A DNA stretch of 64,000 bases from Patescibacteria group bacterium (GCA_013387215.1 WARW01000003.1:10227-74226), one strand, 5' to 3'; shown: positions 2,431 to 48,316, counted from the first letter of the stretch. Made by a program: numbers and translations. Notes: generated by a model from the sequence alone, not told the origin.

Positions 2431-4206
2431 ATGAATATTTTAAAGTGGAACCTGGACGACATATTATCTGTTGAAAAATTTGATGAATTTTTTTGGGAAA
2501 TTCAAAATGATATTGGTTATTATCCACAACTAATTAAAAAACTAGACCCTCGAATGGAAGAGGAATTGTTTAAAGAGATAATAGATTTTGATGAAAATTT
2601 GAGCGAGAAAATTTCCAGATTGAGTTATCTGCCTCACTTAATGGAAACTACCAACCAAAAAGACCAGAAGGCTCAAATTTTAAAATCAAAAGCAGACCAA
2701 ATAATTGTTAGCTATGAGGAAGTTTCAAGAAAATTATTTCACTGGCTTAAGGGAAAAAAGGTTAACGAATTAGAGATTTTGGACAATAAAAATGCAGAAA
2801 GACTATTTGAATCGATTCCTGATTTGGAATTTCAACTTAAACATAATCGTGAAGCATCAAAATACGCTTTAAACGAATCTGAAGAAAACATAATTAGCAA
2901 TAAAAATATTAGCGGAATATTTGCAGTCAAAGATTTACGAAGACAAATATCAACTGGTTTTAGATATAAATTAAAGATTAAAAATCAAAAAACAAGAATA
3001 ATTAAAACACAAGCCGAATTAACAAATTTAGCGCACAGCTCTAAACCAGAAGAAAGAAAAGCGGCCTACTTAAGCTTGTTTAAAGAGTATGAAAAAAATT
3101 TAGATAAATTTTTTATAATTTATCAAGCAGTGGTTAAAGATTGGAATTATGAAGCAAAACTTAGAGGTTATGAAAGCGCCATCAGCATTAGAAATTTTAA
3201 TAATCATATTTCTAATGAAGTAATTGAGATGTTATTAAAAACCTGCAGTGAAAATAAATATGTTTTTCAAAAATATTTTAGATATAAAGCAAAAGAAATG
3301 GGGGTTGAGAAATTAAATCGTTTTGATATTTATGCTCCATTTAAGGCTAGGACTTATAAACACATAGAATTTAATAAAGCAAAAGAGTTGGTTTTAGAAA
3401 CATTTAAAGAATTTTCACCCAGTTTTTACAATCAGGCCAAAAAAATATTTGACGATAAACATATTGATTCCCACCCGAATCCAGAAAAAAGAAGCGGTGC
3501 ATTTTGTGCAACAATCAGTCCTAAAATAACTCCTTACATAATGATGAATTTTACAGGTGAAAAAAATGATTTATATACATTAGCTCATGAACTAGGACAC
3601 GGTATTCACAGTTTATTGGCAAATAATCATTATTATTCAAGTCAGCAGGCTACCCTACCTCTGGCTGAAACCGCTTCCACTTTATCGGAATTAATTTTGT
3701 TTGAAAAAACTTATAAAAATGAACACGATTCTAAAGTTAAAAAAACAATGCTGATTGACCAGATAGCAAGTTCTTATGCAAGCATATTGAGACAAAATTA
3801 TTTTGTGCTATTTGAAATTGAAGCCCATAAATTGATTAATTCAGGGTGCAATTCCAGCCAATTGTCGGAATTGTGGCTAAATACATTAAAGGAGCAGTTT
3901 GGGGATAGTGTAGAGGTGGATAGGGTTTTTAAAAATGAATGGGCTTATATCCCCCATATCTTTGATACACCATTTTATTGCTACAGCTATAATTTTGGAG
4001 AACTATTAAGTTATGCTTTGTATAGTAGATATAAAAAGGAAGGTTTAAGTTTTGTTTCTAAAATTGAAACGATATTGAAAAGCGGAGGTTCAGAGGATCC
4101 CGAAAAAATATTAATGAATGCTGGAATAAATATTAAGGATAAAAACTTTTGGCAGAGTAGTTTTGAGATAATAAATGAATGGCAATCTACATTAGAGAAA
4201 TTGTAA
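2431..4206 (+). CDS. pepF: oligoendopeptidase F (M3B metallopeptidase)
   Basis: HEXXH zinc motif 'AHELGHGIHS' and overall M3B PepF-like architecture, 591 aa. Confidence 0.85.
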   Translation: MNILKWNLDDILSVEKFDEFFWEIQNDIGYYPQLIKKLDPRMEEELFKEIIDFDENLSEKISRLSYLPHLMETTNQKDQKAQILKSKADQIIVSYEEVSRKLFHWLKGKKVNELEILDNKNAERLFESIPDLEFQLKHNREASKYALNESEENIISNKNISGIFAVKDLRRQISTGFRYKLKIKNQKTRIIKTQAELTNLAHSSKPEERKAAYLSLFKEYEKNLDKFFIIYQAVVKDWNYEAKLRGYESAISIRNFNNHISNEVIEMLLKTCSENKYVFQKYFRYKAKEMGVEKLNRFDIYAPFKARTYKHIEFNKAKELVLETFKEFSPSFYNQAKKIFDDKHIDSHPNPEKRSGAFCATISPKITPYIMMNFTGEKNDLYTLAHELGHGIHSLLANNHYYSSQQATLPLAETASTLSELILFEKTYKNEHDSKVKKTMLIDQIASSYASILRQNYFVLFEIEAHKLINSGCNSSQLSELWLNTLKEQFGDSVEVDRVFKNEWAYIPHIFDTPFYCYSYNFGELLSYALYSRYKKEGLSFVSKIETILKSGGSEDPEKILMNAGINIKDKNFWQSSFEIINEWQSTLEKL

Positions 4207-4239
4207 TTAAGTGATATAATTTACATGTAAATTAAGGGT

Positions 4240-4278
4240 AATGTTTGTTTATTTCAAACATGAAGTTCATTTTTTATT
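4240..4278 (+). terminator. weak intrinsic terminator candidate after pepF
   Basis: atgtttg-tttattt-caaacat hairpin followed 8 nt later by TTTTTTATT; AT-rich stem. Confidence 0.25.
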
Positions 4279-4337
4279 CATAATTATATTTTTTAATTAA
4301 TTGTTAATAATTAAAAAAATTAAGGTGGTGATAATAA

Positions 4338-4454
4338 ATGAAAAAATTAATGGAAGAAATATTAACAGATAAAAGTGCCCGAAACATGGCTCAAACAGAT
4401 GCTTTATCACTTGCTGTTGAAGAAGTTGGCGATCCATGGCAAAGTATTGCTTAA
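4338..4454 (+). CDS. 38-aa peptide; candidate ComX-like pheromone / RiPP precursor
   Basis: ATG preceded by AAGGTGGTGA, 7 nt spacer (only strong SD seen in the window); product MKKLMEEILTDKSARNMAQTDALSLAVEEVGDPWQSIA, helical acidic N-part, single Trp near C-terminus; immediately upstream of a histidine kinase. Confidence 0.4.
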   Translation: MKKLMEEILTDKSARNMAQTDALSLAVEEVGDPWQSIA

Positions 4455-4485
4455 TAATTAAATTAAAACCTAGAAATTAAAACTA

Positions 4486-5961
4486 ATGCTAAAAACAATC
4501 ATAAACAAATTAATTTCTAGGTTTAATAATTACTTATTTAATTTTTCCCGGATAAGTGATGAAGATTTGAGGCGAAAGGCTAAGATTTTTAATATAATCA
4601 CTTTCTCTATTTTTTTATTGACTTTATATTCTCTTGCGACTTGGATATTTGGTTATTGTTTTATTGATAGATCTTCTGACAGAAATTTTAGCCACATAAT
4701 TCCAATTTTAGTACTTACACTATTGCCAATTATATTGTTAAAAGTTTCCTTATTAGGAAAACCAAGATTAGCAGCTTGGATATTAATATCATTACTATTA
4801 TTGGCTACATTAAGAACTTCTTTAATTTATGGTGTAAATGTACCAATGGCAACTGTAAGTTATGCGCTAATAATTTTTATGAGCGGAATCTTGGTTGGGC
4901 CATTAAGTGCTTTTTTATTAACAATAATAATTTTTGGTTGCTTGTTAAGCATTTTCTTTTCCCACACGTGGCATTTTATTGAGGTATATTCTGATTGGAA
5001 GAATAAATCTTCTGATATATCGGATATTCTGATATTGAATGTTATATATTTGGTCATTGCAATAGTGTCATGGTTATCGAGCCGAGAAGTTAACAAATCA
5101 CTTAAAAATGCTAATTTATCAGAACAGAAAGCTTTAATGTTGGCTGACAAATTACAAAAACAAAATGATGATCTGGAAAAAATAGTAGAAGAAAGAACAC
5201 AAGAACTTAGGGAACATCAATTAAAACAGCTGATGGAAATAAATACGTTGGCTGAATTTGGAAAAATATCAGCAGGATTATTACATGATTTGAAGAATCC
5301 ATTAACGGTAATTTCAATGAATTTAGACAGTATTAATGATTACGTTAAAGACAAAAATATTTTAAGTCAATCGGAATGGAAAAAATTAATCAACAATTCT
5401 TTATTAGCTTCCAGAACAGTGGAATCAATGGTCAGAACTTCGCAAAAGCAATTAATTAATGAAGATACTAAAGTATTATTTGATTTAAAAAAGGAAATTA
5501 AAAATACTTTAATACTTTTGAATACAAGAGCAAATAAGTTTGGGATAGAAATAAAATTTGTATGTAAAGAATCAATAAACATATTCGGTTGTCCAACAAA
5601 ACTGTCTAGAGTTTTAGCCAACCTAGTTGTAAATAGTATAGATGCTTTGAGGGATGCAAAAAGAGATTTTCCAAAAATAACTATTGAAGTTCAGAAAAAT
5701 AAAACTTCAATAGAAATTATGATTAAAGATAATGGCTGCGGTATTAAAGACGAAGACAAGAAAAATATTTTTCAAGCATTATTTAGTACAAAAAAAGAAA
5801 TGAATAATTCTGGTTTAGGCCTATTTATCAGTAAAACTATTTTGGATAGTTGTTTTAAAGGTACTATTAGTTTTAAAAGTACCTGGGGTGAAGGAAGTGA
5901 ATTTTTAATCGATATTCCGGTTTTAAAACAAAATGGAGCAAAAACTAAACAAAGTAATTGA
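4486..5961 (+). CDS. sensor histidine kinase, ~6 TM N-terminal sensor domain
   Basis: N-terminal 200 aa with ~6 TM helices; coiled coil; H-box 'LLHDLKNPL'; N-box 'NLVVNSIDAL'; G1 'IKDNGCGI'; G2 'GLGLFISK'. Confidence 0.85.
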   Translation: MLKTIINKLISRFNNYLFNFSRISDEDLRRKAKIFNIITFSIFLLTLYSLATWIFGYCFIDRSSDRNFSHIIPILVLTLLPIILLKVSLLGKPRLAAWILISLLLLATLRTSLIYGVNVPMATVSYALIIFMSGILVGPLSAFLLTIIIFGCLLSIFFSHTWHFIEVYSDWKNKSSDISDILILNVIYLVIAIVSWLSSREVNKSLKNANLSEQKALMLADKLQKQNDDLEKIVEERTQELREHQLKQLMEINTLAEFGKISAGLLHDLKNPLTVISMNLDSINDYVKDKNILSQSEWKKLINNSLLASRTVESMVRTSQKQLINEDTKVLFDLKKEIKNTLILLNTRANKFGIEIKFVCKESINIFGCPTKLSRVLANLVVNSIDALRDAKRDFPKITIEVQKNKTSIEIMIKDNGCGIKDEDKKNIFQALFSTKKEMNNSGLGLFISKTILDSCFKGTISFKSTWGEGSEFLIDIPVLKQNGAKTKQSN

Positions 5962-7807
5962 TAAAGGAATTGCCTTTTTAACTGATGAATTAGAAAAGAA
6001 TGTATATTTTGGATTTGAAAGCATATTTCCAATGATTTTGGTTTTTGATTGTCTTAATGAAATTGACAATAAAGGCAGCTACTTGATTAAAGCGAAAATT
6101 AAAAAAGTTTTATTGAAAGAGAAAAATGAATTATGGTCTTTTAATTATTGGAAAAGAAAATCGATAAAAAACAAAATAGAACCATATCCTGAGGATCTTG
6201 ATGATACATGTTTAGCACTTAGTGCTTTATATAGATTTGATAAAAAAGTTTTCAAGGGCAATGATCTTGCAAAAATAATTAATCTTTTAATATTGGCGGA
6301 AGAAAAGATAGGCGGCCCATATCGTACTTGGATATTGGCTAAAGAAAAGTCGGAAAAATGGAGTGATATCGATATTGCAGTTAATAGCAACATTGGATAT
6401 TTTTTAAAATTACAAAAAATTAAGTTAAAGAACTTAACTGAATTAATTGAAAATGGAATCATTAAAGACAAAATATATTCCCCTTTTTATAAAGGTGAGC
6501 TGCCCGTAATTTATTTTATTTCCCGTTTTTATAATGGGAAATTAAAAAATATTTTGAAAGAAAAACTTATCAATAAGGCAAATACTAGCGATTCGGCCTT
6601 AGATTTAGCTTTGATAATAAGCAGTTTAATCAGACTCGGTTATAAAAATATAAAAGAAGACTGGGTTAAGAAAATATGTACAAAACAATCCAAATCAGGA
6701 AATTGGATAGGTGAAGATTTTTATTTTTATGTAGACAAATTAAAACAAACTAATTTTATTGGTACTGAAAGCATTAGTACGGCTTTTATTTTGGAAGCTT
6801 TAACTTTATATATAAATCAAAAACTCAAATTTAAAGATCCATTGTTTTTAGAGATTAATGAGTTTAAAAAAGAAACAGTTTTCAGGCTAGAAAAAGTTTT
6901 TGAAAAGCATCCCGATAAATTAAAAAAGGAAATATTAACATTTATCAAAAACTTAGCTTCGAGCAGTGAATCAGAAATGATAATTGCGACGCCATTAATT
7001 GTTTTAAATTCTATCGATACGGAATTAAAGATCAAAATAACAAAAGATTTTATTGTCAAATTAGGACAAATTAATTTATTGGGATGGTGTGCATATACGA
7101 TTTACGACGATATTATGGACAGTGATTCTTCAGGAAAAATGATTCCAATGGCAAATATAATTTGCAGGGAGATGGAATCAATACTAGGCAGTCTTCCAAT
7201 AAACAAGGAAACAGGTTTTTTTAATTTTTCCAAATTTTTATTGCAAAAAATGGAAATAAGTAATTGGTTTGAACAGAATTATTTATGTCTTAACTCTAGC
7301 AATAATACAATCGATGAGTTTGATTATAAAAAGTTAGCCGATAAGTCTTTAGGACATGCATTGAGCTCAGTAGCAATTTTATGTTATTTGAAACAATCAG
7401 TAAGGTCTTTAGAGGTCCGTTATTTAATGAATTATTTTAGATATTTTATTGTTGCTAAACAGATGAATGATGACGTTCATGATTGGTTAGAAGATTTAGA
7501 AAAAGGCCAAATAAACAGTGCGAGTTATGGATTAATAAAATTTTTAGAAAAAAACAATAAAAGTATTTATAAAGAAATCATGAATAAAGAAAATTTAAAA
7601 TTAATTTTTTGGCAAAATATTGTTCCTGATTATTGTAATAAAATAATATATTTTTCAAATAAAGCGAAAAGAGCATTAAACCAATCCAGTTTAATTATCA
7701 ACAAACTATATTTATTGAATTTAAATAATAAGAATGTAGAATTATGTAGAATTGCATTAAAAGAAAGAAAAAATACATTAGACTTTATAAAAAATTACTA
7801 CAAATGA
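5933..7807 (+). CDS. 624-aa protein with isoprenoid-synthase/terpene-cyclase-like Asp-rich motifs (candidate peptide prenyltransferase)
   Basis: 'EDLDDTC' (aa 87-93, DxDDT-like), 'YDDIMD' (aa 391-396, DDxxD), 'NDDVHDWLED' (aa 512-521, NSE/DTE-like, ~120 aa after DDxxD); sits between HK and RR genes, overlapping the HK by 29 nt. Confidence 0.45.
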   Translation: MEQKLNKVIDKGIAFLTDELEKNVYFGFESIFPMILVFDCLNEIDNKGSYLIKAKIKKVLLKEKNELWSFNYWKRKSIKNKIEPYPEDLDDTCLALSALYRFDKKVFKGNDLAKIINLLILAEEKIGGPYRTWILAKEKSEKWSDIDIAVNSNIGYFLKLQKIKLKNLTELIENGIIKDKIYSPFYKGELPVIYFISRFYNGKLKNILKEKLINKANTSDSALDLALIISSLIRLGYKNIKEDWVKKICTKQSKSGNWIGEDFYFYVDKLKQTNFIGTESISTAFILEALTLYINQKLKFKDPLFLEINEFKKETVFRLEKVFEKHPDKLKKEILTFIKNLASSSESEMIIATPLIVLNSIDTELKIKITKDFIVKLGQINLLGWCAYTIYDDIMDSDSSGKMIPMANIICREMESILGSLPINKETGFFNFSKFLLQKMEISNWFEQNYLCLNSSNNTIDEFDYKKLADKSLGHALSSVAILCYLKQSVRSLEVRYLMNYFRYFIVAKQMNDDVHDWLEDLEKGQINSASYGLIKFLEKNNKSIYKEIMNKENLKLIFWQNIVPDYCNKIIYFSNKAKRALNQSSLIINKLYLLNLNNKNVELCRIALKERKNTLDFIKNYYK

Positions 7808-8484
7808 ATATACTATATATAGAAGACGATAAACAATTAGCCAAAACTATCCAACAAAAACTGATTTCTCATTACAATGTTGATATCTCTCCAACTGGTA
7901 AAAAAGGCATCATTTTAGCCGAGAATAAAGAATATGATCTTTTTATAATTGACTACTATCTGCCAGATCAAAACGGAATTCAAGTTTGTAAAAAAATTAG
8001 AGAGGTTGATACCAAAACACCAATTTTGGTTTTTACTACTAACGATACTAAAAAAGATGTGGTTGAAGCGCTTGATGCAGGAGCTGATGATTATTTGACA
8101 AAACCATTTTCTTATCAAGAGTTAGAAGCCAGAATCAGAGCACTTGTAAGAAGAAACAGTCGTAAGCAGCCAACCAAGCAGATAAATGTTGGCAAATTGA
8201 CTATTAAATTGGATGATCAATATATTGTTTTAAACAAACAATATATTAAATTGCCGAGGCAAGAATATATGCTTTTAAAATATTTGACCACAAATAAAGG
8301 AAAATTGGTTTCACGAGAGGAACTCTATGAACATGTATGGGGTAGAGATGATTACTATAATTCAAACACAATAGACGTCCACATAAGGCGTTTGAGAAAA
8401 AGATTAAAAGAACTTGTTGGAGAAAACTGCATTAAGTCGGTTTATGGAAGTGGATATAAAATATATAATTTTCAAGAAGAATAA
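7804..8484 (+). CDS. OmpR-family response regulator
   Basis: Receiver domain (phospho-acceptor Asp in 'LFIIDYYLPD', 'KPF') plus winged-helix output; ATGA start/stop overlap with upstream gene. Confidence 0.85.
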   Translation: MNILYIEDDKQLAKTIQQKLISHYNVDISPTGKKGIILAENKEYDLFIIDYYLPDQNGIQVCKKIREVDTKTPILVFTTNDTKKDVVEALDAGADDYLTKPFSYQELEARIRALVRRNSRKQPTKQINVGKLTIKLDDQYIVLNKQYIKLPRQEYMLLKYLTTNKGKLVSREELYEHVWGRDDYYNSNTIDVHIRRLRKRLKELVGENCIKSVYGSGYKIYNFQEE

Positions 8485-8614: not shown

Positions 8615-9262
8615 ATGAACGAAAAAATCAAAAAACAACTCACGGCATTTTTTAACAAATATAAACTTATAAAGTATAAAAAGGGTCAAATTCTTTTTAA
8701 ACCAGGTGAGAGAATTAATGGTATTTTATTTGATAAAAGTGGTTACGTAAGAGTCTACACTATCTCAAAAGAAGGAAAGGAAATTACACTACCAATGTTA
8801 AAACCTTTATTTTTCTGTTCTTTAGTCGATGCTTTATTGGGCAAAGAAAACAAATATTACATTGAAGCTATTAGCCCAGTGGAATTATGGCTGGCTCCAG
8901 AAAACGAATTTATGGATTTTATCAAACAAGATCCAGATCTTTACGATAAAATGACCAAATCTATGTTGAATGATTTTATGGATTTAACTAATAATGTTCA
9001 ACAGCTTATTTTTGGGGATGCATACACAAAGATTGCCAGTTTAATATATTCGATGTCAGAAAAATTTGGAGAAATGAAAGGCAAAGAAACCGTCATCGGA
9101 TTTAATACTCCCCACAGAATGTTGGCTAGCATGACTGGGTTAACCAGAGAAACAGTGACTCTACAAATCTTAAAATTACAAAAGGAAGGCTTTTTGTATA
9201 ATAAAGGCCGAAGAATTGTAATTAAAGATATGGAAAAACTCAAAGAAATTGCTCAGGTCTAA
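8615..9262 (+). CDS. Crp/Fnr-family transcriptional regulator
   Basis: N-terminal cNMP-binding-like fold; C-terminal HTH 'RMLASMTGLTRETVTLQILKLQKEGFL'. Confidence 0.75.
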   Translation: MNEKIKKQLTAFFNKYKLIKYKKGQILFKPGERINGILFDKSGYVRVYTISKEGKEITLPMLKPLFFCSLVDALLGKENKYYIEAISPVELWLAPENEFMDFIKQDPDLYDKMTKSMLNDFMDLTNNVQQLIFGDAYTKIASLIYSMSEKFGEMKGKETVIGFNTPHRMLASMTGLTRETVTLQILKLQKEGFLYNKGRRIVIKDMEKLKEIAQV

Positions 9263-9265
9263 TTT

Positions 9266-9700
9266 TTGGTCTATAATTTGTTTATGACTAGTTCAAGTAG
9301 GATTTACAGATCTAAAAATGAGTACATAATTGCCGGTGTTTGCGGAGGTTTGGCGGAACATTTTAATATTGATCCAACCATAGTTAGGATAATTTTTATC
9401 CTCTTAACTTTAGGTGGCGGGAGCGGAATATTAATATATATAATTCTGTGGTTGGTTTTACCTATGGAAGGAAAAAATGAGCCGGATGATTTGAAAGATA
9501 GAGTTAAAGAAATTTCAGAAGAGTTTAAGAATAATTATTCAAATAGAGAAAAGAGAGGTAACTTTTTGGGAATTATAATATTGTTGATTGGCGTAGTTGC
9601 TTTGTTGGACCAGATTCAACCAGCAATAATCAGATGGGATATTTTTTGGCCAGCCGTTTTGATTATGACAGGGTTGTTTTTGATATTTAGAAAAAGATAA
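9266..9700 (+). CDS. PspC-domain membrane protein
   Basis: 'YRSKNEYIIAGVCGGLAEHFNIDPTIVRIIFIL' PspC motif followed by TM helices. Confidence 0.7.
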   Translation: MVYNLFMTSSSRIYRSKNEYIIAGVCGGLAEHFNIDPTIVRIIFILLTLGGGSGILIYIILWLVLPMEGKNEPDDLKDRVKEISEEFKNNYSNREKRGNFLGIIILLIGVVALLDQIQPAIIRWDIFWPAVLIMTGLFLIFRKR

Positions 9701-9859
9701 TAGCTAAAAGCAAGAGGTTTCTTCGTTGGTTTTTAAACACGGCTTGCTTGGTTCACATTTGTTATTTTTCCGAGATTAAAGGGATTATTTCCTTTTACTT
9801 CTTTCTTACATAATTCTAATTTGCTACTTAATTCTTATCAGTAACATTGGAAGTAGTTT

Positions 9860-10279
9860 TTGGTGGAGTTTAATTGTTTTTTGTTTTCTGAAATGATTAA
9901 AAGGATCCTAATAATAATTTCAATAATTGTACTTTATCTAATTCCTAAAAACATTAAATATGATAAAAAAACAAACCCTTCATTGGTAAATAATTCGCAA
10001 GTGATTGTTAGCCAAACCCCCTTAATAAGCAGCAGAGGTATCAAAATAAAAAATATAAATGCCCCTGAGATAATTGGTGTTAACGGAAAAGAAAATTTCT
10101 ATCCAGACCACAGCCTACCTATTAATATAAACAATATCCTATTGATTGGCTCTGCCATATTTATTAGTTCAGGAATTGGTCTTTTAGAAATAGACAATAT
10201 GGTGGCGAGAGTGAGAAATCTTGTTAATAAAATTAACTTTAACGGCTCTTTAGTTAAATTCATTAATAGAATATTATGA
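9860..10279 (+). CDS. hypothetical membrane protein, first gene of GH8/GT2 operon
   Basis: N-terminal TM; ATGA overlap with downstream GH8 gene; no family recognised. Confidence 0.35.
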   Translation: MVEFNCFLFSEMIKRILIIISIIVLYLIPKNIKYDKKTNPSLVNNSQVIVSQTPLISSRGIKIKNINAPEIIGVNGKENFYPDHSLPININNILLIGSAIFISSGIGLLEIDNMVARVRNLVNKINFNGSLVKFINRIL

Positions 10280-11463
10280 ACAAAAGAATTTTGGGCTATT
10301 TATTTATAGTATTAGGGATTGCAGTTTTTGGATATGTTTTGTATGTTAATAGCCAATACATTGATTTAACTCGGCCGTTTTCGTCATATACTTTGTTGAT
10401 TTCTTCATGGGAAAAATATAAACAAGAATTTATAAATAAAGACGGCAGAGTAATTGATTATTCCCAAAGCGGAATTACAACATCTGAAGGCCAAAGTTAC
10501 GCCATGCTTAGATCAGTATATATTGATGACAAAGGCGCTTTTGACCAAGTTTGGAATTGGAGCAAAATAAATCTTAAAAGACCAACTGATAATCTTTTTG
10601 GGTGGAAATGGGGTTTAACCAGTGATAATAAATATGGGTTTTTAGAAAATGGAGGAAGTAATTCAGCTGCCGATGCAGATACCGATATCGCTTTGGCACT
10701 AATATTTGCGGGAAAGCGCTGGAAAAATGATGAATATATAAACCAATCAAAAACAATCTTAAAGGATATTTGGGATAAAGAAACTGGAGTGGCTGCTGGA
10801 AAAAGATATCTGATTGCCGGGAACTGGGCAACTGATGGAAATATGCTAATTATTAATCCTTCATATTTTGAGCCATACGCCTGGAGAATTTTTGCCACAG
10901 TCGACAAAGATCATGACTGGAATAGTTTAATCGGCCCGGCTTATGCTTTATTGACAGATTCAGGAAAAAGTAATCTGGATAAAAATTCATCGGTGGGACT
11001 GCCTCCAGATTGGGTAGAAATTGATAAAACAACAGGTGTTTTAAAGGCACCAAGTTTTGCCAATTTAACCACAAATTATAGTTTTGATGCTATGAGAATT
11101 CCCTGGAAAATTGGATTGGATTATCAATGGAACAAAAATCAGGAGGCTTACAATTACCTGGCTCAATCATTTAAAAAAATATCGGAAATATATGCGACTG
11201 ATGGTAAGCTGCCAACATCACTGTCTCACGATGGACAAATAGTTCAAGATCAAGAAAATCCAACCATGTACGCAACTGCAATTGGTTATTTTATGTTGGC
11301 TGACCCCATAGCAGCAAAAAAAATATATCAAGAGAAAATCCTCAACTTATATTCCAACGACCAAAACATGTTCAACAGCAATCTTCCCTACTATGAACAA
11401 AACTGGTTATGGTTTGGTTCGGCAATTTACAACCACGAAATAAATAGTTTAAGCAATCAATGA
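10276..11463 (+). CDS. glycoside hydrolase family 8 endoglucanase, membrane-anchored (BcsZ-like)
   Basis: N-terminal TM anchor; GH8 signature 'SAADADTDIALALIFAGKRW' (PROSITE GH8-like A-x-D-A-D-x2-I-A-x-A-L-I-x-A-x3-W). Confidence 0.8.
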   Translation: MNKRILGYLFIVLGIAVFGYVLYVNSQYIDLTRPFSSYTLLISSWEKYKQEFINKDGRVIDYSQSGITTSEGQSYAMLRSVYIDDKGAFDQVWNWSKINLKRPTDNLFGWKWGLTSDNKYGFLENGGSNSAADADTDIALALIFAGKRWKNDEYINQSKTILKDIWDKETGVAAGKRYLIAGNWATDGNMLIINPSYFEPYAWRIFATVDKDHDWNSLIGPAYALLTDSGKSNLDKNSSVGLPPDWVEIDKTTGVLKAPSFANLTTNYSFDAMRIPWKIGLDYQWNKNQEAYNYLAQSFKKISEIYATDGKLPTSLSHDGQIVQDQENPTMYATAIGYFMLADPIAAKKIYQEKILNLYSNDQNMFNSNLPYYEQNWLWFGSAIYNHEINSLSNQ

Positions 11464-13010
11464 AATTTAATATAAACAAAGGCCTCCTAGAAAGAGGAAA
11501 AATTGATAAGTCGTTAATAGGGCTTAATTTGGCCATGACTGCTTTTTATTTTTCTTGGTGGCTGACACCGTCGCATATAGATAATAAGTTTTTATATTTT
11601 CTATTGTTTATAGGGGAAATTTATCATATTTTTATGGCCTTAACTTTTTGGCACACAATTGCTCCGGGGCAATTAAAAATTAAAAAAGTGAATAGATCTA
11701 AAAAATTCTTGCCTACAGTAGACATATTTATAACAGTAGCAGGAGAACCAGTAGAAATAGTAAAACAGACAATAAACAAAGTTTTGAACATGAACTATCC
11801 AAAATCTTTTATATATATATTGAATGATAGTTTAGTGGCTAAAAAAGAAAATTGGAGAGAGTATGAATATTTAGCTGAAGAAATGGGGGTTTTTTGCATA
11901 ACCAGAACCGTGTCTGGAGGTGCAAAAGCCGGCAATATTAATCATGCCTTAAAAATAACCACAGGCAAATTAATTGCCATCTTTGATGCCGATATGCAAC
12001 CAAGACCGAATTTTTTATCCAGATTAATACCCTATTTTAGAAACAAAAAGGTTGGTTTTGTGCAAACTCCTCAATATTATAAAAACTGGCAAAATAATTT
12101 GGTTAGCAGCGGCGCATGGGCCCAACAAGAGTTTTTTTTCGGCCCAATAATGAAAGGGAAAGAAAAAAGTAATTCGGCTTTTATTTGCGGAACAAATTTT
12201 TTGATAAGACGAACTGCTTTATTGGAAGCTGGCGGAATGCAGGAGAATAATATTGCAGAGGATTTTTTAACATCACTGTTTGTTCATAATAATGGCTGGC
12301 TGTCTTATTATGTAAACGAAGTGTTGAGTGAGGGTCTGGCTCCAGAAGATATGTTGTCATACTTTAAACAACAACTAAGATGGGCCAGAGGGTCATTGGA
12401 AATCGTATTTACTAGAAATAATCCTCTTTTCAAAAAAAGATTGAGTTGGCACCAAAGGATTGAATATTTATCATCATCTTTGTATTACTTTAATGGAATT
12501 ATAGTTCTAATCGATATTGTAATGCCATTGTTGTTTTTATTTTTTGGAATACGACCAGTAGCAGCTAGCTCCACCTCGTTTGCACTTTTCTTTGTACCTT
12601 TTATATTTTTAAATTTATATTCACTAAGAATGGCTTCTGCCGACAGAATATCCTTTCAAGCATTATCATTCACTCAGTCGTCTTGGACACTCCAAATTTT
12701 GGCTCTAAAATCAATTCTTTTAAAACAAAAAATGAAGTTTGAAGTTACTTCAAAAAGGGCTCTGACTGGAAACTACATAAACTTAGCTTATCCTCATATT
12801 ACTTATATTGTTTTAGCATTTATGGGATCGATCACAGCTGTGCTTAGAGAAGGAATTAACCCATCAGTAATAACAAACATTGCCTGGGTATTAGTAAATA
12901 CAATATTATTTATTCCATTTATTATGGCAGCTTATAAGGCTGAAGGTGTTCCACGACCCAAACTGGAAATCGATCTGGCAACTGAAAATGAAAGAAAACA
13001 TGTCAAATAA
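11460..13010 (+). CDS. GT2 processive beta-glycosyltransferase, cellulose-synthase-like, no PilZ domain
   Basis: 'FDADMQP' DxD, 'VQTPQYY', 'QQLRWARGSLEI' (QxxRW), TM helices flanking the GT domain; ends at 516 aa without a PilZ region. Confidence 0.85.
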   Translation: MKFNINKGLLERGKIDKSLIGLNLAMTAFYFSWWLTPSHIDNKFLYFLLFIGEIYHIFMALTFWHTIAPGQLKIKKVNRSKKFLPTVDIFITVAGEPVEIVKQTINKVLNMNYPKSFIYILNDSLVAKKENWREYEYLAEEMGVFCITRTVSGGAKAGNINHALKITTGKLIAIFDADMQPRPNFLSRLIPYFRNKKVGFVQTPQYYKNWQNNLVSSGAWAQQEFFFGPIMKGKEKSNSAFICGTNFLIRRTALLEAGGMQENNIAEDFLTSLFVHNNGWLSYYVNEVLSEGLAPEDMLSYFKQQLRWARGSLEIVFTRNNPLFKKRLSWHQRIEYLSSSLYYFNGIIVLIDIVMPLLFLFFGIRPVAASSTSFALFFVPFIFLNLYSLRMASADRISFQALSFTQSSWTLQILALKSILLKQKMKFEVTSKRALTGNYINLAYPHITYIVLAFMGSITAVLREGINPSVITNIAWVLVNTILFIPFIMAAYKAEGVPRPKLEIDLATENERKHVK

Positions 13011-14448
13011 ATTACTAGTGCTGATAGTTCTGGTGACATCCCTAATCAGCATTTATTTTCTTTTTACACAATCGATTCGTTTAGATGAGGCTCAATCGAT
13101 ATGGATGTTTACTAAATCGATTCCCGGGATGCTCAAACTTACTTCTCAAGATGTAAATTTACCGCTTTACGGAATAATTATGCATTTCTGGCTGCAGATA
13201 TTAGGAATAAATATTGTTAGAGCCAGATTATTATCTTTGATATTCTTTTTAATAACATTACCAGTTCTGTACCAACTAATAAAAGAATCGAGCGATAGTG
13301 ATCATGCAATTTTAACAGTAGCATTTTTTGCTTTTTCTCCTTTTATTTTGTGGTACACCAGTGAAGCCCGAACTTATACGTTGTTTATATTAATTGCTTG
13401 TTTACAACAATTATATTTTTTACGATTAATCAGAAGTGGTGGAAATAACGGAAAATTTGGTTATTTTATTGGTACTGCACTTGGATTTTATACACATTAT
13501 TTTTTTATTTTCCTTTTAATTGCCCAAATAGTTTTTGTACTGAGTTTAAGAATAGTTAAAGGTAAAAATAAAAATAGGTTAATTAAACGTCACCTAATTT
13601 TAGATTTTGGAGGTTTATTGGTTTTTATTCCTTGGATTTATTATATTTTTAGGACCGGAGGAGCGGTTAACACACAGCCATTAATTCCTATTCCAAACAG
13701 CTATAGCGTGGTGCAGACTTTTGTTAATTTTGTGGTGGGATTTCAATCTCAATCAATTCAAGCAGTCTTAATTTCTCTTTGGCCACTTTCGACTGTAATT
13801 TTATTTTTAATGTTTACACATAGGAAACAAAAATTGGTTAAAAATGTCGAATACTTTTTTTTAGTCACTTTTTTACCGATTATTTTAGTGTTTTTAATAT
13901 CTTTTATAAAACCCATTTTTTTATCTAGATATTTAATTTTAGTGACACCAACATTATTTTTTATAATTGCATGGATAATTTTGAGTAATTCTAAAAAAAT
14001 ATCTTTTTATTTATCGGTATTAATTTTGCTTTTGATGTTTAGTTTTTTAATGTTTCAGAACATTTCGGCAGCAACTCCAAGTAAAGAAAACTATAGTGAA
14101 GTTAGCCAATATTTGAACCAATATACAACACCAGAAGATATTGTGGCAATTACTGCTCCATTTACTATTTATCCAATTGAATACCAATACCAAGGTGAAG
14201 CTAAATTAGTAACAATTCCTAATTGGGATAAATATGTTGAAGGACCAATCCCCCAATATAATTCTGATAATCTAGTTAAACAAATTAATGACTATAAAAC
14301 TCAATATAATCGTTTGTTTGTGGTTTTTTCGTATGATCAGGGATATGAAAATGATATAAAAAATTATCTGGACACACATTATGCCATCATGGGAATGGGA
14401 AAGTTTTCGGACAGTATTGAAATGAGAATCTACAAATTGAGATACTAG
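12988..14448 (+). CDS. GT39-family membrane glycosyltransferase (PMT_2/ArnT-like)
   Basis: 'RLDEAQS' (WxDEA-like), 'DVNLPLYGII' (HPPLYY-like), 'WYTSEARTYTL'; ~11 TM helices; start placed at internal ATG to minimise overlap (long ORF begins 12946). Confidence 0.7.
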   Translation: MKENMSNKLLVLIVLVTSLISIYFLFTQSIRLDEAQSIWMFTKSIPGMLKLTSQDVNLPLYGIIMHFWLQILGINIVRARLLSLIFFLITLPVLYQLIKESSDSDHAILTVAFFAFSPFILWYTSEARTYTLFILIACLQQLYFLRLIRSGGNNGKFGYFIGTALGFYTHYFFIFLLIAQIVFVLSLRIVKGKNKNRLIKRHLILDFGGLLVFIPWIYYIFRTGGAVNTQPLIPIPNSYSVVQTFVNFVVGFQSQSIQAVLISLWPLSTVILFLMFTHRKQKLVKNVEYFFLVTFLPIILVFLISFIKPIFLSRYLILVTPTLFFIIAWIILSNSKKISFYLSVLILLLMFSFLMFQNISAATPSKENYSEVSQYLNQYTTPEDIVAITAPFTIYPIEYQYQGEAKLVTIPNWDKYVEGPIPQYNSDNLVKQINDYKTQYNRLFVVFSYDQGYENDIKNYLDTHYAIMGMGKFSDSIEMRIYKLRY

Positions 14449-15489: not shown

Positions 15490-18400
15490 TTATTTTTGAT
15501 TGAACTTGTAATAATTGTCAGCAAACTGACGAGGCACAAAATGCATCATATCGAGGCTGGTTAAGTTCTTTTTGGGAAGTCCGGTAATAATAATATTACT
15601 GCCAAAAAAATTGTTTATAGTGTCAAACTTTTTTTGAAAAAGCTTTTCTTTTATCATCATTCGAGCCTCATCGTAGCCAACATAAGTGGATAAATATTTA
15701 GTGCCAGCTACTTCATAATTTGTTTTAAGCGGATCGATAATTGATAATAATTGCTGCGGAATATTGGTTTGGTCATACAAATATATTAGTTTCAAATCGC
15801 CAAGAGCAGTTTCGGTAACTAATATATCACTTTTAGCGGTTAGATTGGCAAAAGATTTTTGATTAAAGATGTGATATTCATCGATCAAAGTTCCAGTTGG
15901 GGCAAGAATACCAACAATTTTAATTTTTGGCAGTCCAAAAAAGTTGGGTATTTCAGAACCAACACCTTTAATTAGGCCTTCTTCAATCATCATACTGGCC
16001 TCTTTAGATCCTAAAATAACATTATTTTCTCCTGATAAATCAAAGTTGCCTGCAGATAATTTTAAAGAGGATGGCAGATTGTCGACTCCTAAAATTAATT
16101 TAGGATTATTTTTGACAAAACCAATTTTTGAAGGATTATTTTTTAAAAGCTCATTTATTTCGGTTTTTATGGATGGCCGAGATTGGATATAGGCAACTAG
16201 ACCAGAATTGGATTGGGCATCAGCTCCCATTTTTGAAGAAAAGCTGGCAAATTCAATAAAAATAAGTAAAAAGAATGAAATCATCACAAAAGGAGCCAAT
16301 TTTGATATCCAATTAAACTTCCCTGGTTTGAAAAATTTTAAGGTTAAAGAGTTAGCCACCACTGAAACCGAAGATAAAGCCATGGCCAGACCTGCAAGTT
16401 CAGGTTTAAGAATTAAACCAATCCCCATCAAAGCACGAGCAGCGATGGGAATTCCCAGAATATTATAAAAGAGAGCAAAGAACATATTTTGACGAATTTT
16501 ACCTACGGTTTGGCGAGAAAGATCTATGGCTGTCAGAACTCCATTTAAATCATTACTGATAATGACAATACTACCTGATTCCATGGCGATATCAGCACCA
16601 CTACCCATAGCAATACCAAGATCAGATTGAGTTAAAGCAGGGGCATCGTTGATACCATCGCCAACCATAGCCACTTTAAAACCAGAATCTTGAAGTTTTT
16701 TGACTTCCTCCGCTTTGTTTTGAGGTAAAACTTCAGCTAATACATTGGTAATACCAAGCTGTTTGGCAATTGCGTCAGCAGTACGGTGATTATCACCAGT
16801 GATCATATATACAGCAATGCCCATTTTTTTAAGTTTGGAAACAACAGCAACTGAAGTTTCTTTAAGTTGATCGGCTACAGCAATTAATCCTAAAACTTTT
16901 TCTTTATTGGCGATAAGCATGGCAGTTTTACCATCATTCTCAAGCCTCTCCATATCATAAGAAGAAGTTAAGGGAATTTGATTCGCTTCCAATAGTTTAC
17001 GATTACCAACATAATAGGTTTGACCATTGACTACTGCTTTAACACCAGACCCAGGGATGGCCTGAAAATCTTCAATCGCATAGTTGATTGCCCCACAAGA
17101 TTGGCTATAACGAACAATCGATTCAGCCAAAGGATGTTCAGATTTTTGTTCGATTGAGTATAGAATTGAAAGAATTGTCTGATCACCTGGAAGATAGTTA
17201 ATAAAATCAGTTACTTCAGGTTTACCTTTAGTGAGAGTGCCAGTTTTATCAAAGACAATAGCTTCCAAATTTTGGGCCATTTCCAGCGGTTCGCCACCTT
17301 TAATTAAAACTCCATATTCAGCACCTTTACCAGTTCCAACCATAATAGAGGTAGGAGTGGCCAAACCAAGAGCACAAGGACATGCAATAACGATAACTGC
17401 CACAAAAGCTAATAAGGCGAAAGTTAAAGAAGACCCAAGCAAAAAGTACCAAATTACAAAAGTAAGGACGGCGATACTAATTACAGCTGGTACAAAAATT
17501 GAGGAAATCTTATCGGCAAAACCTTGAATTGGAGCTTTTGAACCTTGAGCATCTTCAATTAATTTGACGATTTGAGACAAAGCAGTGTCGGCACCAATTT
17601 TAGTGGTTTTAAACTCAAAAGAACCAGTCTTATTGATTGAAGCGGTATAAACTTTTGATCCAATTTGTTTTTCAACTGGTAATGATTCGCCAGTTAGAAT
17701 AGATTCATCAACAGCCGAGTAACCAGAAACTACTTCCCCATCCACAGGAATTCTTTCGCCAGGGCGAACAACAACAGTGTCGCCTACCATTACCTGTTCA
17801 ACAGGAATATCCACTGGTTGGCCATTTTTTAGAATACGAGCAGTTTTTGGGGCCAACCCCATTAATTTTTCAATAGCCTCAGAGGTCTTTCCTTTAGCTT
17901 TAGCTTCGAGCCATTTACCTAATGATACAAAAGTGATTAAGAAGGCGGCGACCTCAAAATAAAGATTGGGGATTTTGGAACCATTTAAGCCAATAAATGA
18001 ACCAGTTTCACTAAAATAATTAAAAAATTCAAATATGCTGTAAAAATAGGCTGTACTTGTGCCTATAGCAACTAAAGAATCCATGGAAAAAGTACGCATT
18101 TTTAAGGCTGACCAAAACCCAGCAAAAAAATTAGAACCAACGTAAAAAAGAACCGGAGTGGCTAATAATAAAGAGATCAATCCGGCGTATGGCATGACGA
18201 TGCTTTTAAATGGAACAGTATTGGTAAAATCGTAGACCATGAATAGAATCATGGGGATGCTTAGGATTAAACCGGTGAAGAATTTTGAAAACCAATATTT
18301 TATTTCCTGTTTTCTTTTTTCGTGCTGATTTTCTGTTTTTTCGTTAGGAAGCGAGGCTTTATAACCAGCTGCTTCAATGCTTTTAATCAAATCATCGATT

Positions 18401-18582
18401 TTGGCTGAACTAGGACTGTATACAACTCTGGCTTTTTCAGTGGCAAAATTAACATTAACCTCATTAACACCATTAACTTTTTTTAAAGACCGCTCGATAA
18501 GACCAGCGCAGCTGCTACAATGCATGCCAGTAATATCCAAATTTACGGCAATATTTTTTGTAGATGGGTTTTGATTTTCCAT
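15490..18582 (-). CDS. copA: copper-translocating P1B-type ATPase with ~285-aa C-terminal extension
   Basis: N-terminal HMA '[12 protein letters not shown]'; '[10 protein letters not shown]'; 'DKTGTLT'; 'GDGINDAP'; 1030 aa versus ~740 for the core, with an extra TM and a soluble tail. Confidence 0.9.
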
Positions 18583-22031: not shown

Positions 22032-23420
22032 TTATTGCTTACATTGACCATTGTAGACTGGTGAACAACCAAGTTGGCTGTCGGTTCGCTGGCCAGAAGT
22101 GTCGTCAATATGTTTACGAAGCACTTGTTCTAGCTCATACCCTTTTTGAGGAATGGTGGAGATTAAATTGTTTTGCTCTTTAGGATCGTCATTTAGGTTA
22201 TAAAGCTCTTTGTTGCCGTTTTCTAAAGTTAAAATAAATTTCCAGCCATCTGGAGTCTGATAGGACCTTTTAAATGTATAAAGTCGATAATCAGTTTCAC
22301 TAAATACACTGTGGGCGACAGATTTACCATCAAAAACCGGAGTAAGATCAGCACCTTTTGTCTGTTCAGGAACAGGGTTTTTTATTCCCAATAAATCAAG
22401 CGCAGTTGGAACTATATCGAGAGTGCTTACTAGTTCATTAATTCTTTGGCCTTTGGTTTGGCCTGGTTTGTGAATAGCAAACAAAACATCAACTAGTTCA
22501 CCATAAAGAGTGTGGCCATGATCAAAACGATTATGTTCGTAGAATTCAGTGCCATGATCACTCATAACGATAATAATTGTATTATCCAAAAGTTTCATGT
22601 TGTTGATCTGATCCATAAAGTTTTTGAATTCAGCATCGGTACGATTAATCTTTTCATCATAAATAGCCCGCCAAAAAGCCACATCTTCGGGTGATAGATT
22701 TAAACTTTTACCAGCTAAACCGTCTTCACGAAGTTGACCTTGTTCGGTTGGACTGCCAGTATATTTGCCGTTATATGGCTTTGAAACATAGCGATAATCA
22801 AAACCACCGGCTGGTGCATGCTGCCCGTGAACATCATAGCCATGAAGGAAAAGGAAAAACTGCTTGTTTTTATTCTGCTTTAACCAGTCAACTGCTCTTG
22901 GTATGCTGCCATCGAAACCACCGAAGGTGCCAGTGGGTTCATAATAAGTATCAAAACCTTGACTAAAACCAAACTGCGGCCCAACTCCAGCATCGCCAGT
23001 AAAACCGCCAGTAACAAAACCTTGTTTTTTAAGAATTTCAGCAAGGGTCATGGCATTCGGAGAAAGTTTTTTTAAATTAGAAATAGTTCCCTTTTGGGCT
23101 TTCATATCGTAATCACTAAATTTGTTGACAACTTTATGTTCGGATGGATACATAGAAGTAAAGACAGACATGTGGGTTGGCACTGTCCAAGATGACGGAC
23201 TGACAGTATTGGTAAATAAAGTTGACTTATCAATAAAAGAATCTAAATTGGGAGTCGTGTTCAAAGAATAGCCATATTCATGCAAATGCTTGGCCTGCAA
23301 GCCATCGATCGAAACAAGAATAAGATTATATTTTTTATGAAATAGTTTTGGAGAAATCTTTATTGCAGCAACGGTTAGTAAGCTTAGAACAATGACACCA
23401 ATAAGAAATTTAATTTTCAT
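22032..23420 (-). CDS. membrane-anchored sulfatase-fold (alkaline phosphatase superfamily) protein, divergent paralog
   Basis: Signal/TM; 'TTPNLDSF', 'SSWTVPTHMSVFTSMYP', 'MSDHGTEFYEHNRFDHG' sulfatase-family motifs; lacks KKEGYF tail. Confidence 0.75.
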   Translation of the reverse strand: MKIKFLIGVIVLSLLTVAAIKISPKLFHKKYNLILVSIDGLQAKHLHEYGYSLNTTPNLDSFIDKSTLFTNTVSPSSWTVPTHMSVFTSMYPSEHKVVNKFSDYDMKAQKGTISNLKKLSPNAMTLAEILKKQGFVTGGFTGDAGVGPQFGFSQGFDTYYEPTGTFGGFDGSIPRAVDWLKQNKNKQFFLFLHGYDVHGQHAPAGGFDYRYVSKPYNGKYTGSPTEQGQLREDGLAGKSLNLSPEDVAFWRAIYDEKINRTDAEFKNFMDQINNMKLLDNTIIIVMSDHGTEFYEHNRFDHGHTLYGELVDVLFAIHKPGQTKGQRINELVSTLDIVPTALDLLGIKNPVPEQTKGADLTPVFDGKSVAHSVFSETDYRLYTFKRSYQTPDGWKFILTLENGNKELYNLNDDPKEQNNLISTIPQKGYELEQVLRKHIDDTSGQRTDSQLGCSPVYNGQCKQ

Positions 23421-23493: not shown

Positions 23494-25023
23494 ATGCGAT
23501 TGGGTAAAAAAATATTTATATTTGGTTTGCTGGGATTGATGATAATTGGGAGCGGTTTTTTGATTATTAAAAAAGTATCAAAAAAAACCTGCGATAAATG
23601 CAACATAATGCTTATCGATGTTGATATTTTGAGAGCAGATGAACTTCCCTGCTATGGATATCCCCGAAACACAATGCCAAACATTTGTGAATTTGCCAAA
23701 AAATCAGTAAGTTTTAAAGATAATTATTCGACTTCATATTGGACACTACCAAGTATTTTTTCAGTAATTACTTCACTATATCCAACTTTTCATCAAATGC
23801 AGGTTAATTATATGTTTGCACTGTCGTCTAGAATTCCGACTTTAGCAGAAACTTTACATAAGCAAGGATATAAGACTGTTTATGTGGGACAAAAAGACGA
23901 TTTAATGTCTAGTTATAATGGCGGTTTCCGCGGTTATGATTTAGTAACTCAAGAACCAATTGAAAAAGTAATTGATGAACTTTCAAAAAGTTCTCAACCA
24001 TGGTTTATACATAGGTATATCAGTGAATTGCATATGCCCTATTTATTGCCAGATAATTTAAAACCTGTGGAAGATTTGCCGGTTCCAAAAAATTTACCAA
24101 CTACTTATTACACTTTCGATTTATTTTTTAATAAATATTTAAAAGAACATTACAAAGAAATATTTAAACAGAAAGCAATCGATGAATATAGAGCAATTAT
24201 TTTAGGACCAGATAAGGCAGATGATATTAGTGTGACCAATCTTTTTGATAAATTGAGAGCTGACGATAAAACCATAAATGAATATTTATTAGATGCCTGG
24301 AGACCGAGATTAGATTTTTATTTAAAATCGTTTGACGGAAAAAATCCCCAAGATGTGGCTTATTTAAGAATGATGTATGACACTAAACTAAAATATCTTG
24401 ATGAAAAACTAAAACCTCTTTTACAAAGACTAGACTCGAGTTCATTGTCAAAAAACACTATTACAGTGATTATGTCGGATCATGGTGAAGCATTTGGCGA
24501 GCACGGAACGTTTTCACATGAGGATAATCATTTCACTGAACTATTTTACACTCCTTTAATAATCAGGGCTCCTCAATTTGAAGCAAAACAAGTTGAACAA
24601 ACCACAAATATAGTGGATATATTTCCGACTATTTTAGATTTAACAGGTGAGAAAAAAATTGATATGCATCAAGGGCAATCATTAGTACCTTATATGAATG
24701 GCCAAACTAAAAACGATACTACATTCAGCTTGAGCCAATCAATAGAAGGAACGCTTTTACAAAATAAGAATTGGCTGTACTTTTTACCAAACAGCGCTAA
24801 AGATATGAATGAATCAGAACTCTATAATAAAACCATCGACCCCCTGGAAAAAGTGAATGTGACTGGACAGAATCAAGATTTAGTTAAAACACTTTTTAAA
24901 AAAGCTGATTTATTCCGCTCATACGGAGGGATTGATTATGAAAAAGAAGAAATACCGTTGCCAAACCGGATGAAGTTGGACCCAGATAAAATAGAACGCC
25001 TTAAAAAAGAAGGATATTTTTAA
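23494..25023 (+). CDS. sulfatase-fold paralog 1 (Thr at sulfatase Cys position)
   Basis: N-terminal TM; 'DELPCYGYPRNTMPNICEF', 'STSYWTLPSIFS', 'MSDHGEAFGEHGTFSHE'; C-terminal 'KIERLKKEGYF'. Confidence 0.75.
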   Translation: MRLGKKIFIFGLLGLMIIGSGFLIIKKVSKKTCDKCNIMLIDVDILRADELPCYGYPRNTMPNICEFAKKSVSFKDNYSTSYWTLPSIFSVITSLYPTFHQMQVNYMFALSSRIPTLAETLHKQGYKTVYVGQKDDLMSSYNGGFRGYDLVTQEPIEKVIDELSKSSQPWFIHRYISELHMPYLLPDNLKPVEDLPVPKNLPTTYYTFDLFFNKYLKEHYKEIFKQKAIDEYRAIILGPDKADDISVTNLFDKLRADDKTINEYLLDAWRPRLDFYLKSFDGKNPQDVAYLRMMYDTKLKYLDEKLKPLLQRLDSSSLSKNTITVIMSDHGEAFGEHGTFSHEDNHFTELFYTPLIIRAPQFEAKQVEQTTNIVDIFPTILDLTGEKKIDMHQGQSLVPYMNGQTKNDTTFSLSQSIEGTLLQNKNWLYFLPNSAKDMNESELYNKTIDPLEKVNVTGQNQDLVKTLFKKADLFRSYGGIDYEKEEIPLPNRMKLDPDKIERLKKEGYF

Positions 25024-25068
25024 TAGGTGGTATATTAAACTGATAATTAAAAGTAATAGGCTGTTTTA

Positions 25069-26613: not shown

Positions 26614-26654
26614 TTAGGTTAATATATAAATAATATATTGAATAAATAAATTAC

Positions 26655-28196: not shown

Positions 28197-28209
28197 ATAA
28201 ATTTGAAAG

Positions 28210-31292: not shown

Positions 31293-31298
31293 AAACAG

Positions 31299-45524: not shown

Positions 45525-45525
45525 A

Positions 45526-48213: not shown

Positions 48214-48249
48214 GTTTTAGGTCTGAATGATTGATATAATTTGTATAAA

Positions 48250-48283
48250 CAGTGCCTTGTTAATATCTAACACTGTTTTTTAC
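48250..48283 (+). terminator. possible terminator/attenuator after VirB4 gene
   Basis: aacagtg-N16-cactgtt followed by TTTTT; large loop, weak. Confidence 0.25.
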
Positions 48284-48316
48284 GCTTTTGTAAATTTTAT
48301 TTATATCTTGTAATAA

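Follow-up and report, generated by a model that had tools for sequence, protein, structure and literature searches.

A putative peptide-pheromone cassette with a predicted two-domain prenyltransferase–terpene cyclase in Patescibacteria

A stretch of 64,000 nucleotides (nt) from a Patescibacteria group bacterium (GCA_013387215.1 WARW01000003.1:10227-74226; hereafter the window, with a G+C content of 26–38% across the 64 kb) holds a cassette of four co-oriented genes at positions 4207–8484. An earlier interpretation of the DNA by itself (the sequence-only reading) had likened this cassette to the prenylated-peptide signalling system ComQXPA. Gene calling bore out the four genes, their overlaps and all coordinates. 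The genes, all on the plus strand, encode a putative precursor peptide of 38 amino acids (aa; 4338–4454; MKKLMEEILTDKSARNMAQTDALSLAVEEVGDPWQSIA), a sensor histidine kinase of 491 aa (4486–5961), a two-domain enzyme of 624 aa (5933–7807) and an OmpR-family response regulator of 226 aa (7804–8484). The peptide has a conserved leader, a variable middle, a Pro-Trp pair and a four-residue tail, with its single Trp fifth from the C-terminal end, as noted earlier. The enzyme gene overlaps the kinase gene by 29 nt, and the regulator gene is translationally coupled to the enzyme gene by a 4-nt overlap; both had been recognised in the sequence-only reading.

At the locus of a distant homologue of the 624-aa protein (37% identity), the gene order was regulator, an open reading frame (ORF) of 36 aa, kinase and enzyme. 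This arrangement led to a systematic test for the peptide across related loci. Eighty loci from species-representative genomes and four from assemblies were compared, and counts are given out of 85. A profile built from 28 peptides and searched against all six-frame ORFs of the loci matched one ORF in 73 of them (E<0.01). Nearly all matches shared the strand of the enzyme gene and immediately preceded the kinase gene. Among loci with 200 nt or more available upstream of the kinase gene, the peptide was found in 70 of 71, with a median gap of approximately 45 nt. The 71st locus (L032, 4298–4414) contained a recognisable in-frame copy, …KKLLKKVFINKVIRDTMAISAFVVIIMETTLVWS*, found by eye and with no ATG, GTG or TTG start upstream; a start codon of an unusual kind, an error in sequencing or decay of the copy may explain this. 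Very divergent relatives thus conserve the small Trp-containing ORF beside the kinase gene, and the orthologues lacking an adjacent peptide gene that the sequence-only reading had named as counter-evidence were not encountered. The 38-aa ORF is a real gene; the profile matches across loci ruled out a spurious small ORF. In two Saccharimonadales loci (L058 and L083), the enzyme gene was on one strand and the profile and kinase matches on the other, which points to a rearranged form of the cassette with divergent orientation. The peptide match in L083 is uncertain, as it runs into masked sequence and overlaps the kinase match.

Precursors were 33–41 aa long across the loci, and the window peptide had no Pfam or NCBIfam match (E≤1). 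A Trp was located 1–7 residues from the C-terminus in all 72 readable peptides, usually as Pro-Trp. M1, L9, R15 and W34 were invariant in the peptide alignment, and the leader followed the pattern MKxLxKKxLTDKxARN. The middle and the tail after the Trp were variable, the near-C-terminal Trp being the only invariant residue of the core, and many peptides had a hydrophobic middle segment. An Asp-Pro pair that had been taken as a possible echo of ComX proved not to be meaningful, given that the conserved feature in the alignment is Pro-Trp and the Asp is not conserved. The precursor was also considered as a signal peptide, which was dismissed since many lineages, that of the window among them, have a polar middle region. 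A Pro directly after the would-be cleavage site is expected to block signal peptidase I. Two precursors ended in Trp-Glu-Cys-Cys (L022, 4374–4490) and Trp-Cys-Cys (L014, 4267–4377), a sequence feature that hints at an extra modification or a disulfide in those lineages.

The 624-aa protein had no Pfam match and no NCBIfam match at E≤1; PF28380 was present as a precomputed annotation on four of its homologues. The protein had 52 close database clusters, and a profile search gave the same 51 proteins as a single-sequence search. When a profile was searched against 1.84 billion representatives, 1,477 clusters were obtained at E≤1e-30 and 3,212 at E≤1e-3 (50% identity clusters), and the top 150 were all full-length, at approximately 640 aa. 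Relatives of the enzyme were encoded in 358 species genomes, the titles of which were overwhelmingly Patescibacteria with a few other phylum labels. The carriers included Saccharibacteria, Levyi-, Davies-, Shapiro-, Roizman-, Morani-, Colwell-, Taylor- and Doudnabacteria. The three Asp-rich motifs pointed out previously, DLDDT (aa 88–92), DDIMD (aa 392–396) and NDDVHDWLED (aa 512–521), were present and were the most conserved parts of an alignment of 48 family members with 27–57% identity overall. Invariant residues were D90, D392, D396, Q510, D513, H516, D517 and D521. Near-invariant motifs were PYPDDLDDT and EGGPYRTW in the N-terminal half and GWxAYTIYDDxxD, KSLGH and (K/R)Q-x-x-DDxHDWxxD in the C-terminal half.

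An AlphaFold2 model built with the family alignment (predicted local distance difference test 93, predicted template modelling score 0.87) bore out both folds that had been suggested, an alpha/alpha barrel for aa 1–300 and an isoprenoid (trans-polyprenyl) synthase fold for aa 300–624. The N-terminal domain (aa 1–300; 5933–6832) was predicted to be a class II terpene cyclase consisting of a single beta domain, with a 12-helix alpha/alpha barrel, the middle Asp of a DxDD motif and no gamma domain; its length of approximately 300 aa leaves room for one barrel only. Judged from the model, DLDDT (D88-L-D90-D91-T92; nt 6194–6208) is the DxDD general-acid motif of a class II terpene cyclase. Many conserved aromatic residues accompany the DxDD region, as is typical of class II active sites. 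The sequence-only reading had regarded the protein as a double-size ComQ. This held for the synthase-fold C-terminal half; the protein is not a plain ComQ, its N-terminal half being assigned as a class II terpene cyclase, and the predicted product is consequently a peptide with a cyclised terpenoid.

The C-terminal domain (aa 301–624; 6833–7807) was predicted to be a prenyltransferase with the fold of trans-isoprenyl diphosphate synthases. Its first Asp-rich motif (D392–D396) is encoded at nt 7106–7120, and Q510 together with the second motif (D513–D521) at nt 7460–7495. Neither the window enzyme nor any of the 48 family members matched PF00348, and no Lys or Arg was conserved at ≥70% between aa 300 and 411, the region in which canonical synthases have GGKxxR and RRG. 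In the true synthases encoded in the same operon in some loci, G47, K48, R51 and R98 were invariant. The only lookalike of the KT motif was K471-S472. The domain therefore does not have the signature of a chain-elongating trans-isoprenyl diphosphate synthase (PF00348, GGKxxR, RRG and KT), and the missing PF00348 match and basic motifs at aa 300–411 argue against chain elongation with isopentenyl diphosphate (IPP). When the domain was aligned with true synthases using hhalign, only the second Asp-rich region aligned (probability 15%, E 0.002), placing Q510, D513 and D514 on the Q, D and D of the synthases. A class I terpene cyclase, with NDDVHDWLE read as an NSE/DTE motif, was considered for this domain and rejected: only 1 of the 48 members matched Terpene_syn_C_2, the structural neighbours were all polyprenyl synthases, and the second motif aligned with the FQxxDD of the synthases.

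Hydropathy analysis of the kinase agreed with the earlier description of its sensor, showing approximately six transmembrane helices within aa 34–199, joined by short loops and followed by a coiled coil, a HisKA domain (PF00512, weak Pfam match) and a HATPase_c domain; its orthologues mostly had five or six helices. The regulator was of the OmpR type as stated before (Response_reg, E 2e-25; Trans_reg_C, E 1e-23). In at least 76 of the 85 loci, the enzyme gene was directly preceded by an orthologous kinase gene. The conserved set across loci was exactly the peptide, kinase, enzyme and regulator. The regulator gene belongs to the cassette in most loci and is usually first, with the order regulator–peptide–kinase–enzyme in at least 54 loci; the lineage of the window has peptide–kinase–enzyme–regulator. 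The locus thereby shows the layout of a peptide-based three-component autoinducer cassette, in which a small precursor gene lies immediately 5' of, and co-oriented with, the gene of a polytopic kinase, with a regulator gene in the operon.

Clustering of neighbouring ORFs across all loci revealed that the commonest additional gene was a canonical polyprenyl synthase gene (PF00348, E 1e-38 to 1e-59), found in 17 loci (e.g. L025, 7947–9005), with L067 containing a fragment. In most cases this gene is translationally coupled to the enzyme gene through a 4-nt overlap with its end, or is located between those of the regulator and the peptide. A separate donor-making synthase in the operon fits a transferase role of the enzyme's C-terminal domain. 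Genes for ATP-binding cassette (ABC) exporters were nearby in approximately eight loci and that of a Crp-like regulator in seven. An M3 oligopeptidase gene (PepF-like) lies immediately upstream of the cassette in the window (2431–4206) and its two closest relatives (L001, 2474–4273; L002, 1406–3187). As it is linked in these three loci only, it does not belong to the conserved cassette and was rejected as its processing protease, though it could degrade or process the peptide.

The peptide gene is preceded by a strong Shine-Dalgarno sequence, AAGGTGGTGA (4322–4331, plus strand), 6 nt before its ATG. As had been claimed, this was the only good one among 47 gene starts in the window, matching AAGGAGGTGA at 9 of 10 positions. 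The contexts of the other 46 starts scored 3–8 of 10, mostly with no exact stretch in common with the anti-Shine-Dalgarno complement. Across related loci the mean match was 7.4 of 10 for peptide genes, compared with 4.95 for regulator genes and 4.87 for random positions, and 35 of 73 peptide genes scored at least 8. Recognisable Shine-Dalgarno sequences are almost absent from the window genes, among which the peptide gene clearly stands out; about half of the related loci show the same contrast. A direct repeat with an 11-bp period, TTCAT-N6-(A)TTCAT (4266–4281, plus strand), precedes the peptide gene and is a candidate site for the OmpR-type regulator. OmpR/PhoB regulators usually bind tandem repeats spaced by one helical turn. 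When upstream regions were aligned, the window, L001 and L002 had the repeat in common and, after it, a conserved TAATAAT-like element; L082 had three TTCAT repeats between the regulator and peptide genes. In approximately 1 Mb of loci, 5 of 19 plus-strand matches to TTCAT-N6-TTCAT were within 200 nt upstream of a peptide gene. Since the repeat fits the usual OmpR/PhoB site type, autoinduction by the regulator is plausible, though unproven, on this sequence evidence. Promoter and terminator scans of the window gave background-level results, and it contained no Rfam families.

The likeness to ComQXPA held for the analogous gene content, the Trp-tailed peptide and the synthase fold; homology did not, as none of the four proteins had a Com-family match. 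Both systems are four-gene, one-strand cassettes with overlapping genes, a short precursor with a Trp near its C-terminus, a modifying enzyme of the isoprenoid-synthase fold and, as in comX-comP, a peptide gene immediately 5' of that of a polytopic kinase. In agrD-agrC and comC-comD the peptide gene likewise immediately precedes the kinase gene. Each component differs in family, however. ComQ is a single-domain PF00348 protein, whereas the enzyme described here has two domains, no PF00348 match, an additional class II cyclase and an intact second Asp-rich motif. ComX (PF05952) is 52–73 aa long with a Trp 5–10 residues from the C-terminus, in contrast to 33–41 aa and no PF05952 match here. ComP has HisKA_3 (PF07730) and 8–10 transmembrane helices, compared with HisKA and approximately six, and ComA is of the NarL/GerE type rather than the OmpR type. 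The gene order of ComQXPA is different as well, and the hosts here are Patescibacteria. A census of 2014 placed ComQXPA-like loci in Firmicutes only, and in a 2026 preprint StheQ from Chloroflexi was presented as expanding ComQ-like systems beyond Firmicutes.

Among the maturases compared, the enzyme appears closer to the fused prenyltransferase-cyclases ChrPC and NctPC than to plain ComQ, as likened by its predicted fold and their described domains. According to the account in PMC13290415, prenylation of Trp comes first in ChrPC and NctPC and is followed by cyclisation of the chain (Hubrich et al. 2024, Chem 10:3224). As they are described there, Trp prenyltransferase and class II cyclase are combined in one polypeptide, as predicted here; the NctPC cyclase is MstE-like and the ChrPC transferase has a fold like that of trans-isoprenyl diphosphate synthases. 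The same account presents the characterised peptide prenyltransferases of the synthase fold (ComQ, PalQ and the P domain of ChrPC) as all acting on Trp, and describes in ComQ, PalQ and ChrPC a Gln shortly before the second motif, with binding of the indole NH as its proposed role. On the basis of the model, the 624-aa enzyme combines the features of a ChrPC-type maturase, namely a synthase-fold domain, Asp-rich motifs, the upstream Gln and a class II cyclase domain with DxDD. Where PMC13290415 describes ChrPC and NctPC it mentions no kinase or regulator and gives no description of the precursors, whereas the cassette found here has both, along with its own family of 33–41 aa precursors.

In the systems PalPXQ of Paenibacillus alvei and StheQ/StheX of Sphaerobacter, a synthase-fold Trp prenyltransferase also adjoins its precursor, and the Pal cluster has a histidine kinase. 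PalX, of approximately 100 aa, has a leader of the nitrile-hydratase type, PalQ requires the Trp to be the very last residue, and StheQ prenylates a Trp second from the C-terminus; in the peptides described here, 1–7 residues follow the Trp. The Pal and Sthe systems also lack a cyclase domain, unlike the enzyme here. The predicted cyclase domain is of the single-beta-domain type of MstE and of the cyclase domain of the drimenol synthase AsDMS, which act on small molecules (geranylgeranyl-dihydroxybenzoate and farnesyl diphosphate (FPP), respectively); that of AsDMS is fused to a phosphatase and not to a prenyltransferase. In the drimentine pathway of Streptomyces, farnesylation of a Trp indole is followed by class II cyclisation of the chain to a drimane. 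The substrate there is a cyclodipeptide made by a cyclodipeptide synthase, and the reactions are catalysed by separate enzymes of other families, without a signalling system.

We propose, with a probability of roughly 0.6, that the four genes form a self-contained peptide-pheromone cassette of Patescibacteria that works like ComQXPA and is built from different protein families. The strong ribosome-binding site would allow the 38-aa precursor to be made in excess, and its conserved N-terminal leader would be the recognition handle for the 624-aa enzyme. In the C-terminal domain, Mg2+ held by the two Asp-rich motifs would ionise a prenyl diphosphate, and the prenyl chain would be transferred to the indole of the invariant Trp34 near the C-terminus of the peptide. 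The donor, probably C15 or C20, would come from a canonical polyprenyl synthase, which is co-operonic in about a fifth of the loci. The distal double bond of the attached chain would then enter the N-terminal class II cyclase domain and be protonated by Asp90 of the DxDD motif, initiating a cyclisation cascade to a bi- or polycyclic terpenoid on the peptide. This proposal of Trp prenylation followed by cyclisation comes from the ChrPC/NctPC-like domain composition and the adjoining peptide with its invariant near-C-terminal Trp. The order is chemically sensible, since a product cyclised beforehand, such as drimenyl diphosphate, is no longer allylic and would make a poor alkyl donor. After export and probable removal of the leader, the six-helix bundle of the kinase would detect the lipopeptide inside the membrane, and the kinase would phosphorylate the OmpR-type regulator. 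The regulator would probably feed back via the TTCAT-N6-TTCAT repeat upstream of the peptide gene and control further genes.

Several points weigh against this interpretation. Contact between the peptide and the enzyme is suggested by synteny and precedent only, and the kinase could respond to a different stimulus and have no role beyond regulating production. In sequence, the C-terminal domain is no more than marginally similar to any synthase, its assignment resting on the predicted fold, and its second Asp-rich motif is intact, unlike the degenerate one of ComQ and StheQ, so catalytic details may differ. No polyprenyl synthase is encoded in the 64-kb window, and the cassette has neither a conserved exporter nor a conserved leader protease among the loci. 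The TTCAT box was found only in the lineage of the window and in L082.

The rival explanation that survives best keeps the same chemistry and gives the product another role: a secreted bioactive lipopeptide, such as an antimicrobial, a host-membrane-perturbing compound or an episymbiont attachment factor, with the kinase and regulator controlling production or immunity as NisRK does for nisin. The hydrophobic middle segment of many peptides and the ABC exporters near the cassette in approximately eight loci are consistent with this. So is the description, in part of the literature, of Patescibacteria as living attached to hosts. The known cyclo-prenylated ribosomal peptides, as reported in PMC13290415, likewise came from natural-product genome mining and not as pheromones. 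Immunity and transporter genes are not conserved alongside the cassette, however, and the conserved set corresponds to a minimal autoinducer layout. In nisin-type systems the peptide also signals to its own kinase, and such a lipopeptide would therefore differ from a pheromone in its ecological role and not in its mechanism. We consider a product that is not a quorum signal unlikely on balance.

It is very improbable that the 624-aa protein is an assembly line for a free terpenoid (e.g. a polycyclic membrane lipid), comparable to the fungal PvCPS. Its C-terminal domain would then build FPP or geranylgeranyl diphosphate and its N-terminal domain cyclise it, under regulation by the two-component system, with the peptide as an unrelated accessory of the kinase. 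No family member matches the polyprenyl synthase Pfam model, the IPP-binding GGKxxR and RRG motifs have no conserved counterpart and the co-operonic canonical synthase of 17 loci would be redundant. Such an assembly line would also leave unexplained why 72 of 72 peptides have the invariant Trp at a set distance from their conserved leader. That the peptide is prenylated and not cyclised, giving a ComX-like linear prenyl-Trp pheromone with the N-terminal barrel as a silent peptide- or lipid-binding scaffold, is scarcely probable: alpha/alpha barrels are often non-catalytic (e.g. the beta domain of plant class I synthases) and cyclisation, which leaves the mass unchanged, is not inferable from sequence, but the almost invariant PYPDDLDDT, the invariant D90 and the conserved aromatics across sequences of 27–57% identity argue for catalysis by this domain.

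The genes directly 3' of the cassette (8615–14448) encode a Crp-like regulator, a PspC/LiaF-like membrane protein, a GH8 glycosidase, a GT2 cellulose-synthase-like glycosyltransferase and a PMT_2 protein. These genes make up an exopolysaccharide or envelope cluster, conserved in L001, which could be a target of the cassette's regulator. Further along, the window contains a tandem array of seven ORFs of approximately 460–520 aa each, one at 22032–23420 on the minus strand and six at 23494–32831 on the plus strand. Three of the seven were scanned and belong to the sulfatase family PF00884; the other four are presumed sulfatases from their similar size only. The array is followed by a PMT_2-like membrane protein (32839–34227), and an expansion of this kind would not be expected in a genome so small and streamlined. 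At 45499–51430, the gene of a TraG/VirB4-like P-loop ATPase (904 aa) precedes that of a protein of 1,037 aa whose C-terminal part is an NlpC/P60 domain; the two resemble components of a type IV secretion or conjugation-like apparatus. Of the remaining proteins scanned, a copper-type P-type ATPase that includes an HMA domain (15490–18582, minus strand) and a 1,017-aa DUF4012 protein (60319–63372, plus strand) are ordinary.

The cassette resembles a previously undescribed peptide-pheromone system that is widespread in Patescibacteria, most of which have not been grown in culture. A literature search yielded no paper linking Patescibacteria to the cassette, to peptide pheromones or to terpene-modified peptides, and the mining figures of Hubrich et al. 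(2024) might include such sequences. Prenyl-Trp pheromones were thought to be confined to Firmicutes until 2026, and the cassette would extend them to a distant superphylum by convergent assembly. More tentatively, it may point to cell–cell or symbiont–host signalling broadly across the candidate phyla radiation, based on ribosomal peptides with a polycyclic terpenoid on a C-terminal Trp, a cyclase-prenyltransferase fusion and a dedicated six-helix kinase. If this broader reading is true, no autoinducer system would have been described before in the Patescibacteria superphylum, nor any pheromone modified with a cyclised terpene. For chemistry, the family would offer a large and compact set of enzymes, as yet untapped, for attaching terpenes to peptides and cyclising them, each paired with a defined substrate of 35–40 aa. 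Patescibacteria have tiny genomes and have shed most biosynthesis, and the enzyme is nearly always encoded inside the same four-gene cassette. That a dedicated isoprenoid-peptide module is kept in such streamlined genomes implies an important role in episymbiotic life, possibly in density sensing, host recognition or the control of attachment.

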